Positions 3-6,910 are shown, counted from the first letter of the stretch. The stretch: DNA of 17,396 nt from an uncultured Candidatus Saccharibacteria bacterium (GCA_964640425.1 CAZXFC010000023.1:1-17396), one strand, 5' to 3'. Notes: generated by a model from the sequence alone, not told the origin. Translations and numbers: made by a program.

Positions 3-3000
3 TTATATCCTCCTTATCTCCTCGGCGATTATGGAAGGCGAGTCGTTGCGGAAAGAATAATTTCCCGTGACCATGACGCAATTGTTTTCGATTATATTTT
101 GGCCGTATTGCTGGAGGGTGCGCGGGAAAACGACGCATTCGATCTCGTCAGTCATGTCCTGAAGCTTTAAGAAGAGCATCGATTCTCCCTTTTTGGTCGT
201 TATACGGCGCGAGGTCAAAATAAGCGCGGCGACGGAAGCCTGCGGTCCGTAAGTGCCGCCTTTTTTTATTTTGAAGGAAGATATGGGAATTATGTAACCG
301 TTTTTCCCATTCTTTTTGTTGTCGTTATTGAATTTTTCGAGAGGATGCCCGGAAACATAAACTCCGAGGAGCTCGCGTTCCCAAGCAAGCTTTTCCTCAA
401 GCGTTGCTGGTAAGGTTTTTGATAGTTTAAGTTGCGGGAGAGTTGATTTATCAGACATTTCTGAAAAAAGCGATGACTGGCTGTCGTTCGAACTTTTGCG
501 GTGCGCTTTTGCATATTCCAAAATTTTATCCATATTTTTGACGACCTCGTTCCTTTCGGCAAATCCGTCCAAGGCCCCGGCTTTGGCCAGCGATTCGAGT
601 GATCTTTTGTTTAAGTCTTTTGAGTCGACCCTTTCCAGAAATTCGGCGAGCGACGTGAAAGATCCGTTTTTATCGCGTTCCACAATTATCGCTTCAACGA
701 TATTTTCCCCGACATTTTTTATCGACGTGAGCCCAAATCTGATTTTTGGCGGTTCACCCGCCGCTTGGCGGTCCGACTGCAAAGCGGGTATGGAAAATAT
801 TTTATTGCTTTGGTTGATATCCGGAGGCAAAACGGAAATCCCCATTTCTTTGCATTCCTTGATCAGCATTGCGATGCGTTCGGTATCTTTTTTATCGTTG
901 TTGAAAAGCGATGTCATGAATTCGAGAGGATAATAATATTTAAGCCAGGCTGTCTGAGCCCCGATTATCGCGTATGCGGCCGTATGCGCCTTATTGAAAC
1001 CGTATCGCGCGAAAGGCTCCAGAAGTTCTCCCAATTCTTGGGCTATTTTCGCATCAATGCCGTTTTTTATCATTCCGCCGACGAATTTTTCTTTTTGCTC
1101 TTCGAGAAGACTTCTTATTTTCTTACCGATGGCTTTGCGCAAAATGTCGGCTTCGGCGAGAGTAAACCCGGCCATTTCCTGCGCAATCTGCATCATTTGC
1201 TCCTGATAGATCGTCACTCCGTAAGTCGGCGACAATATTTTTTCCAATTTAGGATGGATATAAGTGACTTTTTCTTTGCCGTGCTTTCGCAAAATAAATG
1301 AGGGGATAAGCTCCATCGGGCCGGGGCGGAAGAGCGATATCATGGCGATGATGTCTTCAATGTCGTGCGGCTCCAGCTCCACTAAATATCTTGTCATTCC
1401 CGAACCTTCAAGCTGGAAAACTCCCACGGTTTTCCCTTCGCGGAGCATTTTGTAGGGTTCAGGATCGTTTACGTCGATATTTTGAATATCTATTTCTTTG
1501 CCGTACCTTTCTTTTATCAAATCGATGGTATTTTCCATTATCGATAGGTTTTTCAATCCGAGAAAATCCATTTTGAGAAGTCCCAAGTCGACGATGCCGT
1601 GCATATCGTATTGCGTTACGATCGCCTCATGCCTCGCATCGTCGTCTCCCCGCACGGCGGCGCGCTGCAACGGCACCATGTCTGTGAGAGGATTTTTTGT
1701 GATAACAACTCCCGAAGCGTGAACCGAAGCATGGCGGCATACGCCTTCCAGTTTCATTGCGGCGTCTAACATTTTTTTCGCGTCCGGGCTCGTCTCATAA
1801 ATGTTTTTAAGTTCAGGAACTTCTTTAAGGCATTTTTCCAGATATCCTTCTTTTTCTCCCTGATTCGGGTTGAAAGGTATCATTTTTGCGGTTTGGTCGG
1901 CCAATGCGAGTGAGATGCCCAAGGCCCGCCCTGCGTCGCGAATCGCCGCGCGGGCCGCCATTGTGCCGAAAGTGATAATTTGCGCAACATGATCCCTTCC
2001 GTATTTTTGGGCGACATATTCAATTACTTCGTCCCGCCTCGTATCCGCAAAATCCATATCGATGTCGGGCGGCTCCACGCGCGCAGGATTTAAAAATCTT
2101 TCGAAAATAAGATTGTATTTTATCGGGTCGACGTTCGTTATTTCCAAAACGTAAGAGACGATTGAGCCTGCCGCCGAGCCTCTTCCCGGGCCGACCGCGA
2201 TTTTTTGTTTTTTTGCCCAATTGACGAAATCCCACACCACCAAAAAATATTCAACGAACCCGGTCGTTTGCAAAACCGAAAGCTCGTAAGCAAGGCGCTT
2301 TTCTATTTCTGCGCCGGGTTTTTCACCATATCGTTTTATCAGTCCTTCTTCGCAAAGTTTTTCGAGGTACGAAAATGCCGTTTCGCCTTCGGGAAGAGGA
2401 AAGCTCGGTATTTGGATTTTACCCAGTTCCATTTTCAGATCGCACATCTCTGCGATTTTCAGCGTATTTGTAATTGCCTCGGGCGTATCTTTGAAAAGTT
2501 CAGCCATCTCTTCAGGCGCGCTGAGCGAATAATCGTCGTCTTTCATCGTGAGCCGGTCCTCGTCGTCGAGCCTTGTATTGGTTTGCACCGCCAAAAGCAC
2601 GTCGTGGGCCGACGCGTCATTTTTTTTTAAATAATGGATGTCTTGGGTCGCGACAAGCCCCACGCCGTGTTTTTTAGCGAAAGCTACGAGGTCGGCCATC
2701 AGCTTATTATAATTCGGCACTGAAGGATGGCTGCCTATTTCGATGAAAAAATTTTCTTTGCCCAAAATCTCCTGATATTGCGCCAAAAGTTCATCTGCCC
2801 TTGCTTCGTCGTTGTTCAAAAGAGCGCGCGGAATTTCGCCCGTCATGCATCCGGAGAGAGCGACGAGGCCGGCCGAATACTTTCTCAAATTTTCTTTATC
2901 TATTCTCGGCTTGTAATAGAAACCCTCCAGATGGGCGAGCGTCACGAGCTTCACGAGGTTTTTGTAACCCTCCAGGTTTTTTGAAAGCAATATCAAATGA

Positions 3001-3257
3001 TATCTTTTGTCGTCTATGCCGGGGCGTTTTTCATAAAGAGAACCGGCGGCGACGTAGGCTTCAACTCCGATGATCGGCTTTATTCCCGCTTTTTTACAGG
3101 CTTTGTAAAATTCTATCGCGCCGTAAAGATTGCCGTGATCGGTTATCGCCAAGGCGGGCATGCCCATTTTTTTTGCTTCCTTAACAAGGCCGTCAATTTT
3201 TGCAAGGCCGTCCAAGAGCGAATAATGCGAATGAGTATGTAGGTGAACGAATGACAT
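3..3257 (-). CDS. dnaE: DNA polymerase III alpha subunit (replicative polymerase), compact 1084-aa form
   Basis: Single uninterrupted ORF. The N-terminal PHP-domain signature MSFVHLHTHSHYSLLDG...ITDHGNLYG and a polymerase core are conserved throughout. ATG at 3255-3257 (reverse strand), stop at 3-5. No SD is visible upstream. Confidence 0.9.
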   Translation of the reverse strand: MSFVHLHTHSHYSLLDGLAKIDGLVKEAKKMGMPALAITDHGNLYGAIEFYKACKKAGIKPIIGVEAYVAAGSLYEKRPGIDDKRYHLILLSKNLEGYKNLVKLVTLAHLEGFYYKPRIDKENLRKYSAGLVALSGCMTGEIPRALLNNDEARADELLAQYQEILGKENFFIEIGSHPSVPNYNKLMADLVAFAKKHGVGLVATQDIHYLKKNDASAHDVLLAVQTNTRLDDEDRLTMKDDDYSLSAPEEMAELFKDTPEAITNTLKIAEMCDLKMELGKIQIPSFPLPEGETAFSYLEKLCEEGLIKRYGEKPGAEIEKRLAYELSVLQTTGFVEYFLVVWDFVNWAKKQKIAVGPGRGSAAGSIVSYVLEITNVDPIKYNLIFERFLNPARVEPPDIDMDFADTRRDEVIEYVAQKYGRDHVAQIITFGTMAARAAIRDAGRALGISLALADQTAKMIPFNPNQGEKEGYLEKCLKEVPELKNIYETSPDAKKMLDAAMKLEGVCRHASVHASGVVITKNPLTDMVPLQRAAVRGDDDARHEAIVTQYDMHGIVDLGLLKMDFLGLKNLSIMENTIDLIKERYGKEIDIQNIDVNDPEPYKMLREGKTVGVFQLEGSGMTRYLVELEPHDIEDIIAMISLFRPGPMELIPSFILRKHGKEKVTYIHPKLEKILSPTYGVTIYQEQMMQIAQEMAGFTLAEADILRKAIGKKIRSLLEEQKEKFVGGMIKNGIDAKIAQELGELLEPFARYGFNKAHTAAYAIIGAQTAWLKYYYPLEFMTSLFNNDKKDTERIAMLIKECKEMGISVLPPDINQSNKIFSIPALQSDRQAAGEPPKIRFGLTSIKNVGENIVEAIIVERDKNGSFTSLAEFLERVDSKDLNKRSLESLAKAGALDGFAERNEVVKNMDKILEYAKAHRKSSNDSQSSLFSEMSDKSTLPQLKLSKTLPATLEEKLAWERELLGVYVSGHPLEKFNNDNKKNGKNGYIIPISSFKIKKGGTYGPQASVAALILTSRRITTKKGESMLFLKLQDMTDEIECVVFPRTLQQYGQNIIENNCVMVTGNYSFRNDSPSIIAEEIRRI

Positions 3258-3375
3258 ATTAATAATTTGATTCTAGCAATTATTTTAGGTTTTGCTAATA
3301 TATATTCAAAAATGCGGGAAAAAACTTGTAGCAACTGGCTGCCCGCCATTTATCAACCCCGGAGGTTCAGATTTT

Positions 3376-3405
3376 TAACTGTCATACTAAGGCAGTTTTT
3401 TCTTT
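3376..3405 (+). terminator. Terminator-like hairpin (aactg-11 nt loop-cagtt, then T-tract) just outside the 3' hairpin of IS-like element A
   Basis: Stem 3377-3381/3393-3397 followed by tttttctttt. No plus-strand gene ends here, so it may be an insertion-target structure rather than a functional terminator. Confidence 0.25.
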
Positions 3406-4076
3406 TATTCCAGCATTAATGTTAGAAGCTCGGTGTCTAACAATTTTGCCGTGCTGGATTTTACAAAACCGAGGTATTCCACTTTGTTTGCGAATTGGTC
3501 CAGGACGATATCCGGCAGCAAAAGAGGTCCCCATCGATTTGTCACAGTATAGTCCTGATAGCTGGACCACGTATATACGTGGTCTTTTTGTTTCCACTCT
3601 TTCATTTCTCGCGGATTACGGTGAATATATGCTGAAAGATGTAGAAGCTGCCGATCATCTTCGACATGTACAATTTTATACGGACCTTGGAACAAATGGC
3701 CGGATTTATTATATTTTGTATTGAAATATTTTGTGTATGCCGTAAGAACTCTTTGCATATATTGCGAAATACCGCCTTCAATGCCTTCTTTTATGGTCAG
3801 ATGAAAATGATTTGGCATTAAAGCAAAATTTACTAATTCCACAGAGCGATTTTTTATAATTTCGGCAATCATTGATTTATCGATGTTAAAAGCTCGGTGT
3901 CTAACAAATCTAGACACGTATCGGCCGATGTTATAGAGAATTTCCGGAGATTGGAAATATAAAATCAAGAATAAGAAGCGTGCCTTGTCTTTTTCGTCAA
4001 GAAAGATTTGCTGTTTATTATTGCCGCGATTGAAAAGATGGTAATACTCTCCGGGCGCGATAGGTGTTGTTCTCAT
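3405..4076 (-). CDS. tnpA: Y1 (HuH) tyrosine transposase, IS200-like / REP-associated (RAYT-like, COG1943-type), 223 aa
   Basis: N-terminal G-E-YYHLFNRG motif, HuH motif LMPNHFHL, and C-terminal catalytic-Tyr helix LSAYIHRNP. Paralogous (roughly 35-40% identity by eye) to the CDS at 5201-5836. Confidence 0.8.
   Translation of the reverse strand: MRTTPIAPGEYYHLFNRGNNKQQIFLDEKDKARFLFLILYFQSPEILYNIGRYVSRFVRHRAFNIDKSMIAEIIKNRSVELVNFALMPNHFHLTIKEGIEGGISQYMQRVLTAYTKYFNTKYNKSGHLFQGPYKIVHVEDDRQLLHLSAYIHRNPREMKEWKQKDHVYTWSSYQDYTVTNRWGPLLLPDIVLDQFANKVEYLGFVKSSTAKLLDTELLTLMLE
3419..3447. repeat. Element A terminal hairpin repeat, 3'/RE side (atgttagaagctcggtgtctaacaatttt). Stem tgttaga/tctaaca, loop agctcggtg.
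   Basis: Exact 29/29 match to 4094-4122. It lies inside the last 14 codons of tnpA-A. Confidence 0.85.
3883..3911. repeat. Element A internal copy of the terminal hairpin (atgttaaaagctcggtgtctaacaaatct), same orientation, 26/29 identity
   Basis: It lies inside the tnpA-A reading frame and encodes FVRHRAFN. An overlapping alternative stem gtgtcta/tagacac is also present. Hairpin centre is 211 nt from the 5'-side copy and 464 nt from the 3'-side copy. Confidence 0.8.
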
Positions 4077-4093
4077 ATGTGCATCAAGCTAGC

Positions 4094-4122
4094 ATGTTAG
4101 AAGCTCGGTGTCTAACAATTTT
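4094..4122. repeat. Element A terminal hairpin repeat, 5'/LE side, 18 nt upstream of the tnpA-A start
   Basis: Exact 29/29 match to 3419-3447. Confidence 0.85.
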
Positions 4123-4171
4123 ATATTCTATGTATTTTATGCTCCAATGCCAATAGATAAATAAGGCAGAG

Positions 4172-5116
4172 ATGCTTTTTAAGCTCCTTGCAAATATTTA
4201 TACGGCCGGACGCACATTCGGTGAAGCGAAGCCCAGGATTGATGCGCTTACAAGGCGAGGTTTTAGCGTGACGAGCGATATTTTGGGTGAATTTAACAAA
4301 GATCGAGAGAGAATTGAACAAGCGGTTGACGAGTATTTACTGCACATGCAGGTACTGGGCTTACTGCAAAAAGCCAAAGGAACCGGAAATATTGTAAGCC
4401 TGGCCGTTAAGCCGTCGCGTATCGGGCTTGAACATTCATATGGGGTTTTCCAAAAAAATCTTCATATTATTGCCGAAGCCGCTAAAAATGCGGGAATATT
4501 TCTTTGGACTGACGCTGAAAAAAAGAAAGACCGAGAAATAGTTACCGTCTCGAATATAAGAGAGCGTGCCATGGGCTTCGATAATATAGGGCAGGCAATT
4601 CAATGTGTCCATTCCGATGCCGAAAAATTTATTGAAGAACTTCTTAAATGGAATATTGGTATTCGTTTTGTGAAAGGCGCGTATACTGACGGAGACCTGA
4701 AAAAAGACACGGACATTGTCCAAAATTTTAAAAATTGTTTTTGGTCAGCGCTTTTTCATTTCAGAAATTCAAAGGAAAAAGCTACTATAGCCGCGGCTAC
4801 CCACGATAGCAGGCTCATCGATTATGCGCTCAGGTTCAGGGAAATAGATCCGGATCTCGCGCAATTTATCCAGATTCAGATGCTATATGGTATCCGCGTG
4901 AAGCTGTGGTTTGAGCTTATAAGGAAAGGGGTTGATCTTTTGATATACGTCCCTTGGGGACCCGACCGGATCGGCTTCTTAAAGCGCCGACTCAAAGAAG
5001 GCATCCAGCCGGGCGCCAAATGGCTTTTTATCAGGAATATTTTCGAAGCGTGGTTTTATAGATTTTCTGATGACTATCCTTACGGTTTTGGAGAAGATAC
5101 TTTTAATAAAAAATAA
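4172..5116 (+). CDS. Proline dehydrogenase (monofunctional PRODH, PutB-like), 314 aa, N-terminus about 20 aa shorter than typical homologues
   Basis: Motifs conserved in the PRODH barrel: IGIRFVKGAY (compare LRIVKGAY), AAATHD (compare VATHD), FIQIQMLYGIR (compare FQMLYGMR), YVPWGP, and FLKRRLKEG (compare MRRLAERP). SD-like aagg lies 6 nt upstream of ATG 4172. An in-frame upstream stop at 4154 fixes the start. Confidence 0.8.
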   Translation: MLFKLLANIYTAGRTFGEAKPRIDALTRRGFSVTSDILGEFNKDRERIEQAVDEYLLHMQVLGLLQKAKGTGNIVSLAVKPSRIGLEHSYGVFQKNLHIIAEAAKNAGIFLWTDAEKKKDREIVTVSNIRERAMGFDNIGQAIQCVHSDAEKFIEELLKWNIGIRFVKGAYTDGDLKKDTDIVQNFKNCFWSALFHFRNSKEKATIAAATHDSRLIDYALRFREIDPDLAQFIQIQMLYGIRVKLWFELIRKGVDLLIYVPWGPDRIGFLKRRLKEGIQPGAKWLFIRNIFEAWFYRFSDDYPYGFGEDTFNKK

Positions 5117-5123
5117 CATTTCA

Positions 5124-5156
5124 TCCGGCGTCAATGGCGCCGGATTTGTTTTTTTT
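5124..5156 (+). terminator. Rho-independent terminator of the PRODH gene
   Basis: Stem tccggcg (5124-5130) / cgccgga (5138-5144), 7-nt loop, followed by tttgtttttttt. Confidence 0.75.
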
Positions 5157-5162
5157 ACAGTC

Positions 5163-5188
5163 ACTTGGCTTCCCGAGACCTAAGTGCT
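5163..5188. repeat. Element B 5'/LE hairpin (acttggc-ttcccgaga-cctaagt, stem with a 1-nt bulge)
   Basis: Shares ttcccgagacctaagt(N)tgct with the 3' copy. Confidence 0.8.
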
Positions 5189-5200
5189 ATATTGCGCGGC

Positions 5201-5836
5201 ATGAGAAAATCAAAATTTGTAAATGGGGAATTTTATCATATTTATAATCGCGGAACCGACAAAAGAGTAATTTTTTCCGATCAATACGACTTTGAGCGCT
5301 TTCTTCGGGCTATGAACGAGTTTAACTCAATCAAGCCGGTTGGCAGCCTTTACGAAAATTCTTTTCGCGACCGACTTAGGTCTCGGGAACCTAAGTTGGT
5401 AAATATCGTTGCTTATTGTCTAAATCCAAATCATTTTCATATTATTTTAGAGCAAATGAAAAACGGCGGGATAAGTAATTTTATTCAAAAACTTGGAGGT
5501 GGGTATGCTAATTATTTTAACGCTAAATACAAAAGGTCGGGAACTCTTTTTCAAGGAAGATTCAAATCAAAGCATGTGGATTCAAATGAATATTTATTGC
5601 ATTTAAGCGTATACGTAAATTTAAATAATAAAGTTCATAAAATAAAAAATCAGAACTTCAGATCAAGTTGGGATGAATATATGAGAGATAACAAAACAAG
5701 CTTGTGCGGGACAAAAATAATTTTGGATCAGTTTAAGAATTCAAAAGAATACAGGATTTTTTCCGAAAGCTCTTTGGTGGATATATTACAAAGGAAGGAA
5801 ACGCACAAGGAGATAGAAAATCTGTTGCTAGAATAG
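5201..5836 (+). CDS. tnpA: Y1 (HuH) tyrosine transposase, IS200-like / RAYT-like, 211 aa from ATG 5201
   Basis: MRKSKFVNGEFYHIYNRG aligns with MRTTPIAPGEYYHLFNRG of the paralogue. HuH motif LNPNHFHI and catalytic-Tyr helix LSVYVNLN are present. The ORF-track start at TTG 5165 was rejected in favour of ATG 5201 on the strength of this alignment. Confidence 0.8.
   Translation: MRKSKFVNGEFYHIYNRGTDKRVIFSDQYDFERFLRAMNEFNSIKPVGSLYENSFRDRLRSREPKLVNIVAYCLNPNHFHIILEQMKNGGISNFIQKLGGGYANYFNAKYKRSGTLFQGRFKSKHVDSNEYLLHLSVYVNLNNKVHKIKNQNFRSSWDEYMRDNKTSLCGTKIILDQFKNSKEYRIFSESSLVDILQRKETHKEIENLLLE
5374..5396. repeat. Element B internal hairpin (acttaggtctcgggaacctaagt), the exact reverse complement of the 23-nt 3'-end hairpin
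   Basis: It lies inside the tnpA-B reading frame and encodes LRSREPKL. Hairpin centre is about 211 nt from the LE hairpin and about 465 nt from the RE hairpin. Confidence 0.8.
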
Positions 5837-5838
5837 TT

Positions 5839-5867
5839 ACTTAGGTTCCCGAGACCTAAGTAGTGCT
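5839..5867. repeat. Element B 3'/RE hairpin (acttaggt-tcccgag-acctaagt, then agtgct), 3 nt after the tnpA-B stop
   Basis: Perfect 7-bp stem. The loop contains CCGAG, as in the element A loops when read in element orientation. Confidence 0.8.
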
Positions 5868-5952
5868 CATTCGGGCGTTAATTGCGCCTGACTCTATGTT
5901 TTTTTTAGGAATATGCTATCTTAATTTAAGAATGTTTTTGTAGAGGCGTATT

Positions 5953-6207
5953 GTGGTTGCTTATATTTTATTGGCAGTTATTGCTGTTGTTTTGGATTAT
6001 TTTTTTGGCAAAAATGCTTTCACGAGTTGGTTTGGCTGGTACTTATTTCTAAGCGTTGTCATTTGCATGCCGGCGCACATGTATTCTTACATTCTACAAC
6101 TTACGTTAGGAAGCGAGGAATTCGCAAAAAAATACCCAAATCCCGAAGAATATCTAGCTTCGCATAAAACTTTTTTGTTTGCAATATTTTACAGCTTATT
6201 TCTCTAA
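5953..6207 (+). CDS. Small hydrophobic (2-TM) hypothetical protein, 84 aa, GTG start
   Basis: The ORF runs two hydrophobic stretches and is followed by a terminator-like hairpin. No recognisable motifs and a weak start context. Confidence 0.3.
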   Translation: MVAYILLAVIAVVLDYFFGKNAFTSWFGWYLFLSVVICMPAHMYSYILQLTLGSEEFAKKYPNPEEYLASHKTFLFAIFYSLFL

Positions 6208-6274: not shown

Positions 6275-6910
6275 ATGTATTATTTATGTGTGGTTAAATA
6301 CATCATTGGAATCGACGAGGTTGGGAGGGGACCGTTGGCCGGGCCGATGATGGTCGGCGCCGTTGCGATTGCCGGAGAGCCGCCGGACGCCGGATTTTTG
6401 AGAGGAATAAAAGATTCTAAGAAACTGACAAAACTCCGGCGCGAGAATTGGAGCAAGAAAATTTGGGCGGAGAAAAACCGGCCCAAGGCCGGCCAGCCTG
6501 GGGCTGGCGAAATTAAAATTGCAATTGTCTCTATTGGTCCGTCCGTTATCGACAAATACGGGATATCTGCATCATTAAAACTCGCGGTAGCCAAGTGTCT
6601 TAAGATTTTGGTTAAAACCGATGACGAGTGCGAAATATTTCTCGATGGCTCGCTTTATGCGCCTGAGCAATATAAAAATCAACAAACAATTATAAAAGGA
6701 GACGAAAAGTTTCCGGTAATTTCCGCGGCTTCGGTGGTGGCCAAAGTTTACCGCGACAAAATAATGCAAAAACTTTCGATAAAATATCCCGAATATGGTT
6801 TTGACAATCATGTCGGCTATGGCACCGCCGCCCACATCGCGGCGATAAAAAAACACGGCCTCTCGGCCGTCCACCGCAAAAGTTTTTGCAAAAAAATTCT
6901 TATTGATTAA
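6275..6910 (+). CDS. rnhB: Ribonuclease HII
   Basis: Signature IIGIDEVGRGPLAGP...DSKKLT, a catalytic DxxD... region, and a full-length 211-aa product. GC-rich relative to its neighbours. Confidence 0.9.
   Translation: MYYLCVVKYIIGIDEVGRGPLAGPMMVGAVAIAGEPPDAGFLRGIKDSKKLTKLRRENWSKKIWAEKNRPKAGQPGAGEIKIAIVSIGPSVIDKYGISASLKLAVAKCLKILVKTDDECEIFLDGSLYAPEQYKNQQTIIKGDEKFPVISAASVVAKVYRDKIMQKLSIKYPEYGFDNHVGYGTAAHIAAIKKHGLSAVHRKSFCKKILID
6848..6875 (+). repeat. 28-bp perfect direct repeat, copy 1 (aaaaaacacggcctctcggccgtccacc), inside the 3' end of rnhB; contains the palindrome acggcc-tctc-ggccgt
   Basis: Identical to 7636-7663. Confidence 0.9.

Follow-up and report, generated by a model that had tools for sequence, protein, structure and literature searches.

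Why should the gene of a transposase-like enzyme contain, in its own reading frame, a copy of the hairpin that flanks it? The question is raised by a stretch of 17,396 nucleotides from an uncultured Candidatus Saccharibacteria bacterium (GCA_964640425.1, CAZXFC010000023.1:1-17396), referred to below, at its full length, as the window. Two genes of the window, here called A and B, encode Y1 (HUH) proteins, and each is accompanied by three copies of its own palindrome, one upstream of the gene, one inside it and one at its 3' end. A preliminary description of this DNA ascribed the internal copies to selection on structure and suggested that they could be autoregulatory sites or alternative element ends. 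The explanation that we consider reasonably probable is a different one: A and B would be RAYT-like paralogues, the hairpin copies at each gene would form one repeat family with sequence transferred between the copies, and the internal copies would be renewed in loops of the protein that tolerate them.

The hairpin copies of genes A and B

The A and B proteins are 35% identical, and their genes are divergent, with a proline dehydrogenase (proDH) gene between them. Both proteins match Pfam Y1_Tnp (PF01797), with E-values of 2.4e-12 for A and 1.3e-8 for B. The HFH motif (NHFH) is at residue 90 in A and residue 78 in B; the tyrosine motif is YIHRNP at residue 150 in A and YVNLN (YVNLNN) at residue 138 in B.

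A repeat and pattern search finds the 23-mer of gene A, TGTTAGAAGCTCGGTGTCTAACA, in two exact copies, upstream and downstream, and in an internal copy with one mismatch, all on one strand (Table 1). The start-to-start spacings are 464 and 211 nucleotides, and the single mismatch of the internal copy to the terminal ones creates a G:T pair in the stem. The 23-mer of gene B, ACTTAGGTTCCCGAGACCTAAGT, is exact downstream, has two mismatches upstream and is present internally as an exact reverse complement, with spacings of 211 and 465. No further copies of either hairpin were found elsewhere in the 17.4-kb window, and none of 200 shuffles (0/200) contained any match. Thus all six copies listed in the preliminary description, including the third, in-frame copy of each gene, are confirmed, as are their relative orientations: the internal copy lies on the same strand as its flanks in A and is inverted in B. 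The downstream copy of A also lies within the reading frame of the gene, though translated in another frame than the internal one, and the closest homologues have the same kind of end.

The copies were also said to fold as hairpins. As single-stranded DNA (ssDNA), the three B copies have folding energies of −4.3, −9.0 and −6.3 kcal/mol, the internal one (−9.0, z = −4.0) being the most stable of all six, and the terminal copies of A have −3.5 and −4.9 kcal/mol. The internal copy of A, taken alone, is a weak hairpin with −0.7 kcal/mol, no better than shuffles.

Conservation of the internal copies in related loci

Searches with the protein sequences yielded over 3,500 relatives of A and over 4,600 of B. 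Where the source names the organism, it belongs to Patescibacteria lineages, e.g. Giovannonibacteria, Zambryskibacteria and Paceibacterota. We collected the loci of the 160 best matches, that is, the best 80 of the A type from genomes and the best 80 of the B type from metagenomes; these are collinear over essentially the entire protein, and the source metagenomes include the Rifle and Hainich groundwater sets. About three quarters of the 160 loci (∼120) have cognate flanking hairpins and an in-frame copy at the same site. Most relatives thus possess the copy, and in the same place, rather than lacking it or having it at random positions, and conservation of the internal copy, at one fixed place, is supported for both families, which share only 35% identity.

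In the A type, the internal hairpin is present in 64 of 82 loci, usually as a 10-bp stem with a 3-nt loop, e.g. TGTTAAACAC-CGA-GTGTTTAACA. In most of these loci its start is at +170 from the ATG; a few have it displaced, by about 15 nt at the most. The same sequence recurs upstream (−33 to −62 from the ATG) and near the stop codon (about +630 to +705), and in 58 of the 64 loci both flanks differ from the internal copy by at most four mismatches. Being coding, the internal site keeps its place at about +170, whereas the flanks lie at positions that differ by tens of nucleotides between members of the family. Hence the spacings of 211 and 464–465 nucleotides, which had been put forward as conserved between A and B, are correct as values and reflect a fixed internal site, but their near-identity is partly a matter of chance.

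The B-type hairpin has the form ACTTGG-NNNN-loop-NNNN-CCAAGT. It occupies the same site, denoted site 1, and in addition a second one, site 2, after the helix with the catalytic tyrosine (VH-LGxxxSK-SW). Among 79 loci, 22 have the hairpin at both sites, 18 at site 1 only, 20 at site 2 only and 19 at neither, so that 60 have at least one internal copy and 42 have a cognate in-frame hairpin at site 2. Gene B of the window has the hairpin at site 1 only.

The CCGAG centre, noted earlier as common to the loops of A and B, is indeed found in all six window copies. However, it is typical of the A type (44 of 60 hairpins) and not of the B type (10 of 68).

Loci such as L014, L045, L050, L075, L081 and L097 have an intact open reading frame (ORF) and the flanking hairpins, and lack the internal copy. 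Only 14 extra cognate hairpins were found beside the A-type genes, in 145 kb. In six loci (L012, L022, L025, L051, L068 and L113) the flanking hairpins form inverted doublets resembling REPINs, which are paired inverted repetitive extragenic palindromes (REPs), and in L113 a hairpin doublet also lies within the gene, at site 1.

The internal hairpin might be a second left or right transposon end, which would allow sub-elements of about 240 or 490 bp to be mobilised. All copies are equivalent in sequence, and the outer foot of the upstream hairpin of A coincides with the boundary of a presence/absence polymorphism (see below), so hairpin feet may be break points. On the other hand, a tblastn search with A and B within 1.5 kb of the 160 loci found no mini-elements and no truncated gene fragments. 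The sole extra match was a full-length duplicate: locus L048 (1501-3344) contains two complete A-type genes in tandem, with hairpins at each. In addition, the collinearity of the best matches extends over the whole protein, and the use of the internal copy would destroy the gene. The mini-elements suggested in the preliminary description were thus not found within 1.5 kb of these loci, and we consider an alternative end very improbable.

Covariation and copying between the copies

In 81 A-type internal sites, changes on both sides are seen in nine of the ten stem pairs, with 96 double-change cells against 27.7 in shuffles. None of 500 shuffles (0/500) reached the observed value, and in slid registers pairing drops to 32–47%. 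Moreover, the internal copies resemble their own flanks. The total number of mismatches between them is 244, compared to 770 ± 27 when the flanks are permuted among loci (z = −19), and in 37 of 64 loci the own flanks are unbeaten by those of any other locus. The same permutation for the B type gives z = −21.

As A site 1 is coding, the encoded peptide changes together with the stem, and the stem-specific variants FVKHRVFN, FVQHRVLD, FVRHRVSH, FTKHRVFS and FVQSPALD each track the flanks of their own locus. These variants bear on the simplest account of the match, a coincidence caused by a conserved peptide: TTTGTTAAA...TTTAACA, one possible coding sequence for the residues F-V-K...F-N, is in itself an inverted repeat, and a motif FV[KR]x[RS]xFN whose usual codons pair mutually does recur in the A family. 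However, the variant peptides change in step with the non-coding flanking copies, and B uses an unrelated peptide, LGxxxxK, both at the same site and at the second one. Together with the permutation z-scores, this makes the coincidence barely conceivable, and we reject it. The view that an amino-acid motif is not the cause of the match is therefore upheld: the peptide follows the DNA.

Selection on structure, as proposed initially, is consistent with the double changes on both arms, but several imperfections and loop bases indicate copying. In L044, asymmetric arms are duplicated exactly in the upstream copy. In L015 and in window A, which has a hybrid loop, imperfect features that do not pair are common to all copies of the locus. 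Between L143 and L155 the identity outside the sites is 85%, yet both internal sites encode QLGCGAPKL in one of them and QLGSSASKL in the other. Finally, comparison of window B (5163-5861) with its orthologue in L163 (3459-4170), from a genome with a DnaE 92% identical to that of the window, shows CCCGACACC in all three copies of L163 and CCCGAGACC in all three copies of the window, the difference being one loop base, GAC versus GAG. The shared imperfections, the L143 and L155 peptides and the L163 loop base argue for sequence transfer between copies independently of any correction for relatedness of the loci. Judging by these sequences, copying between copies seems to be no worse an explanation for the match of the palindromes than selection on structure.

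The same two orthologues differ by a flip of the internal loop, TCTCGGGAA (inverted) in the window versus TTCCCGACA (direct) in L163, and the peptide is LRSREPKL in the former and LRFPTPKL in the latter. Template switching at a quasipalindrome can invert a small hairpin loop, since a loop within a perfect inverted repeat flips while the stem is unchanged. It is only a candidate mechanism for this flip. Fast phase-variable flipping in populations was considered and rejected, as contigs with the same protein from different samples (L161–L164 and L165–L169) have identical flanking copies; these contigs were selected by exact protein match, and hence only the flanks are informative.

The overwriting of the coding sequence does not appear to be complete. 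In five loci (L003, L005, L011, L013 and L025) and in window A, the internal copy has TTT (Phe), and with it a G:T pair, where the flanks have AGA...TCT. The retained TTT looks like protein-level selection opposing full homogenisation.

DNA or RNA, hairpin or duplex

If the internal copy acted in mRNA, as one of the roles suggested earlier implies, an excess of G:U pairs over A:C would be expected on the sense strand. In the internal copies, however, G:T (18) and A:C (13) combinations read on that strand are about equally frequent. In the A-type loci all eight combinations of loop orientation are seen, and the relative orientations of the flanks are (+,+) in 20 cases, (−,−) in 11, (−,+) in 17 and (+,−) in 10. 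Random loop orientation and the lack of a G:U bias speak for a palindrome that acts at the DNA level rather than for an mRNA element whose loop is defined. No Rfam family reached the threshold in the region 3200–6100. An RNA-level element was therefore rejected as the principal reading, and autoregulation via mRNA finds no support.

Dyad symmetry alone fits a ssDNA hairpin and a duplex bound by a dimer alike. The 23-bp palindromes could then be double-stranded operators, recognised for instance by the helical C-terminal domain, with the internal copy as an extra operator. Random loop orientation and the absence of a strand bias suit a duplex as well as a hairpin, the upstream copy of B overlaps a promoter-like site, and the protein motifs resemble those of subclass 2.1, to which PMC6006769 ascribes helix-turn-helix-like (HTH-like) C-terminal domains. 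However, a Pfam search of A and B found no HTH domain, the C-terminal region of the protein models is of low confidence, and the characterised Y1 enzymes of this fold all recognise ssDNA hairpins. This last point decides for us. The best fold match found by Foldseek is the E. coli RAYT–REP complex (PDB 4ER8), followed by ISDra2 and IS608 TnpA, with E about 1e-4; as the crystal structures of these nearest folds are of Y1 enzymes on ssDNA hairpins, the ssDNA hairpin is favoured, and the duplex operator appears distinctly improbable.

The AlphaFold models of A and B are of moderate quality, with mean predicted local distance difference test (pLDDT) scores of 65 and 63, respectively. In model A, site 1 falls in residues 49–64 with pLDDT below 50, between the first helices and the helix–strand unit leading to HFH. 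In model B, site 1 is a coil ahead of the strand 67–75, and site 2 is in the low-confidence segment 143–158, past the Tyr helix. The placement in low-confidence or coil segments suggests that both sites are tolerant loops outside the HUH–Tyr core, probably exposed at the surface. A DNA-contacting role for the hairpin-encoded peptide was considered and not favoured, since the segment has pLDDT below 50 and the peptides encoded by the B-family hairpins are not basic.

Proposed explanation and its alternatives

In the explanation that we prefer, A and B would be two diverged paralogues of RAYT-like Y1 (HUH) ssDNA endonucleases, which form a very large family in Patescibacteria. The arrangement would resemble that of a REPtron, i.e. 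a tnpAREP gene with its own flanking cognate REP hairpins, extended by in-frame copies at one site in A and at up to two in B. All copies of one gene would constitute a single repeat family, subject to repeated transfer of sequence between them in either orientation. Stem variants, imperfections and loop bases would thereby spread to every copy, and the coding sequence would be partly overwritten, the peptide changing along with the flanks. A few positions would be held back by purifying selection at the protein level, among them the Phe codon TTT, which stands against TCT in the flanks. The encoded enzyme would bind and cut the hairpins as ssDNA, by analogy with E. coli TnpAREP and IS608 TnpA, and homogenisation might be driven either by the enzyme acting preferentially near its own gene or by template switching at palindromes during replication.

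We would guess that continual renewal in tolerant loops is what mainly maintains the internal copies, and that this is more likely than their being needed by the protein or for regulation, because about one quarter of the relatives have lost them and keep the ORF with its flanking hairpins. One observation on gene B bears on regulation. Two arm substitutions in its upstream copy create a −35-like TTGGCT, with TATATT 17 nt further on, just before the ATG (5163-5193), and L163, the orthologue, has both of them despite the change of the loop base there. Since these substitutions are kept while the loop base has changed, the upstream copy of B, at least, may serve expression.

The internal hairpin, in turn, may be an autoregulatory site, which the enzyme binds either in ssDNA (of the transcription bubble or the lagging strand) or in mRNA, limiting its own expression, while selection keeps the match. 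Tight down-regulation by structures in the 5' end is a known property of IS200, and a similar role here would agree with the fixed position in families 35% identical, with the perfect match to the flanks in many loci, and with the overlap of the upstream copy of B with the −35/−10-like pair whose arm substitutions are conserved. It would not explain how relatives without the internal copy dispense with it, nor the shared non-pairing imperfections and loop bases, which are unexpected from selection for recognition alone. The internal hairpin of window A is thermodynamically negligible, and the loop orientation and pairing bias considered above speak against an RNA element. We therefore regard autoregulation as rather unlikely, and retain renewal of the copies in tolerant loops as the preferred explanation.

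Several observations weigh against that explanation too. The binding and cutting of hairpins is extrapolated from relatives that are only 13–17% identical, the internal copy of window A barely folds as ssDNA, and the supposed sequence transfer would have to take place between 23-nt repeats situated 200–470 nt apart. The permutation z-scores are uncorrected for relatedness between the loci, and the models are of such moderate quality (pLDDT 63–65) that a surface loop is a likely reading only. The retention of site 1 in families 35% identical and the many perfect matches with the flanks could equally mean positive selection. As for the RAYT assignment, the cut-off of NCBIfam REP_Tyr_transpos (NF047646) is 80 bits and the two proteins, with 30.8 and 27.1, fall far below it, and the canonical GT[AG]G foot of REPs is absent, the A type beginning with TGT... 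and the B type with ACTTGG or ACTTAG.

A stronger form of the explanation, that the Y1 enzyme acts in cis and repeatedly writes its own substrate hairpin, in either orientation, into two loops of its own gene, is a tentative possibility, which we would not expect to be true. If it were, the gene would carry a heritable, self-renewing master copy of the recognition site of its product, a part of the protein would be dictated by a mobile repeat, and the 700-bp units would be the smallest self-contained system for watching RAYT-like REP copying directly.

For the question of how REP hairpins are spread and homogenised by RAYT-type enzymes, three or four cognate hairpins within about 700 bp make a compact assay system. 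They also present a clear natural case in which a constraint at the DNA level makes amino acids of a protein change in concert. Genomes of the candidate phyla radiation contain thousands of members of the family, and the sources that name them mostly say "transposase".

Genomic context

The coordinates of the features are collected in Table 1.

Table 1. Genes, hairpin copies and other features discussed in the text; positions are those of the window.
Feature	Position	Strand	Remarks
DnaE	3-3257		large ORF
860-nt segment	3258-4117	−	gene A, three hairpin copies and 162 nt adjoining dnaE; missing from GCA_001778595.1
Gene A	3405-4076	−	223 aa, Y1 HUH (RAYT-like); ORF call, Pfam PF01797, fold match
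A downstream copy	3420-3442	−	within the 3' end of the ORF, codons 212-219, LLDTELLT
A internal in-frame copy (site 1)	3884-3906	−	codons 57-64, FVRHRAFN; orientation as in the flanks
A upstream hairpin	4095-4117	−	41 nt 5' of the ATG; outer foot (4117) is the boundary of the segment missing in a close relative
Proline dehydrogenase (proDH)	4172-5116		Pfam Pro_dh
B upstream copy	5163-5185	+	2 mismatches, both in the 5' arm
Gene B	5201-5836	+	211 aa, Y1 HUH; ORF call, Pfam match
B internal in-frame copy (site 1)	5374-5396	+	codons 58-66, RLRSREPKL; loop flipped relative to the downstream copy
B-family site 2	5627-5665	+	after the catalytic Tyr helix, before SSW; window sequence NKVHKIKNQNFRS, without a hairpin
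B downstream copy	5839-5861	+	begins 2 nt past the stop codon
RNase HII	6275-6910		

The genome GCA_001778595.1 lacks the segment with gene A. Its empty site reads CAT-ATTTTAT, the hyphen marking the junction (window 3258-4117 against L163:2420-2540), and this is one case only. One boundary of the segment is exactly at the outer foot of the upstream hairpin, and the other is 162 nt past the downstream hairpin, abutting the dnaE start codon. A comparison of the boundaries for a target-site duplication gave 7 of 12 AT-rich matches, which we judged not significant. Just beyond the segment there is a promoter-like TTGGCA-17-TAGAAT on the minus strand (4153-4125), and a stretch matching it directly precedes dnaE in GCA_001778595.1; hence gene A may sit between the old dnaE promoter and dnaE.

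The identity between GCA_001778595.1 and the window is 92% for DnaE, 76% for RNase HII and 77% for B, and only 60% for proline dehydrogenase. Because of the contrast between proline dehydrogenase and DnaE, the locus is, to judge from identity values, a mosaic.

A homologue of A that is 75% identical (P0003; L001 and L165–L169) occupies the same interval between RNase HII and DnaE in a distant Giovannonibacteria genome, and has this single context in all 24 of 24 contigs. In that genome DnaE and RNase HII are 56% and 53% identical, respectively, to those of the window. This suggests either that the constraint is unusually strong or that horizontal exchange has taken place at a conserved site. 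The block of proDH plus B is missing from the distant genome of L001.

GC-rich hairpins followed by T tracts, resembling intrinsic terminators, are found after proDH (5123-5145) and after the downstream hairpin of B (5871-5891). A role of the flanking hairpins themselves as intrinsic terminators is not supported, as the consensus scan chose these separate GC-rich ones.

Comparison with known systems

The preliminary description assigned A and B to the IS200/IS605 tnpA genes. They do share with this group the Y1 HUH transposase fold with HUH and the catalytic tyrosine, the size of about 700 bp and the hairpin boundaries. The one case of presence/absence polymorphism has one end exactly at a hairpin foot and the other 162 nt past a hairpin. 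The ends of A and B are the same palindrome in any relative orientation, whereas those of IS200/IS605 are distinct left and right imperfect palindromes on one strand. Table 1 of PMC6006769 lists Y-x3-Q and a core-only protein of about 150 aa for IS200/IS605; A and B, with 223 and 211 aa, have a C-terminal extension and another Y motif. Nor was near-identical multi-copy spread seen in the contigs read: the two copies in the window are 35% identical, P0003 has a single context in 24 of 24 contigs, and P0123 also has a single context.

A and B resemble RAYT genes more than classic IS200/IS605 tnpA, and we have revised the assignment for four reasons: the Y-x3-NP motif, the fold match to 4ER8, the same palindrome at both ends, and the single context. 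The motif, as defined for RAYT/TnpAREP in PMC6006769, is present in A (YIHRNP) and has its Pro replaced in B (YVNLNN). As in RAYT systems, the gene is bracketed by its own palindromes in the window and in most of the 160 loci, each paralogue has its own hairpin type, and the best fold match is E. coli yafM (4ER8). The group 3 REPtron of S. maltophilia (PMC8266576), with an 8-bp palindrome and a 3-nt loop, has hairpins close in size to the window type. The differences are that there are several divergent paralogues per genome, that the proteins are longer (211–223 aa) and have FQ for WQ/WE and an SS motif, and that the dispersal seen is limited to the 14 extra copies in neighbouring DNA. By eye, the motifs NHFH / FQ / YIHRNP / SS are like those of subclass 2.1 of Quentin et al. 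(PMC6006769), which was reported to lack REPs and to have terminal inverted repeats together with its HTH-like C-terminal domains.

Our literature search for RAYT-like genes in the candidate phyla radiation found no relevant paper. For the internal copies themselves there is a precedent, although the preliminary description knew of no cognate hairpin inside a tnpA gene. In the tnpAREP genes of subclass 2.4, cognate REPs lie in frame inside the gene, in a peripheral loop, and are judged to be of little effect on activity (Quentin, Siguier, Chandler and Fichant 2018, PMC6006769, Figs S6 and S10). These REPs have a long GT[AG]G or a "double foot", and the hosts are mainly Cyanobacteria and Bacteroidetes. 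As here, cognate hairpins both flank the gene and lie inside it with the frame kept. The present hairpins occupy other loops, at fixed sites before the HUH strand (residues 57–64 in A and 58–66 in B) and after the Tyr helix; the proteins have FQ and not WQ, the palindromes are perfect, 23 nt long and without GTAG, and the hosts are Patescibacteria.

REPs within ORFs are known more generally (Di Nocera et al. 2013, PMC3733652). Such REPs, and the Rickettsia palindromic elements (RPEs), are likewise short palindromic repeats that are translated in functional proteins and tolerated in loops; there, however, the host genes are unrelated to the repeat, whereas here the host is the presumed acting enzyme and the copy matches its own flanks. 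In-frame REPs in tnpAREP being already known, the present case stands apart by its host lineage, by the kind of hairpin, by two fixed positions in loops outside the HuH–Y interval, and by two features shown here and not discussed in the part of PMC6006769 consulted, namely the concerted change of the copies and the loop flips.

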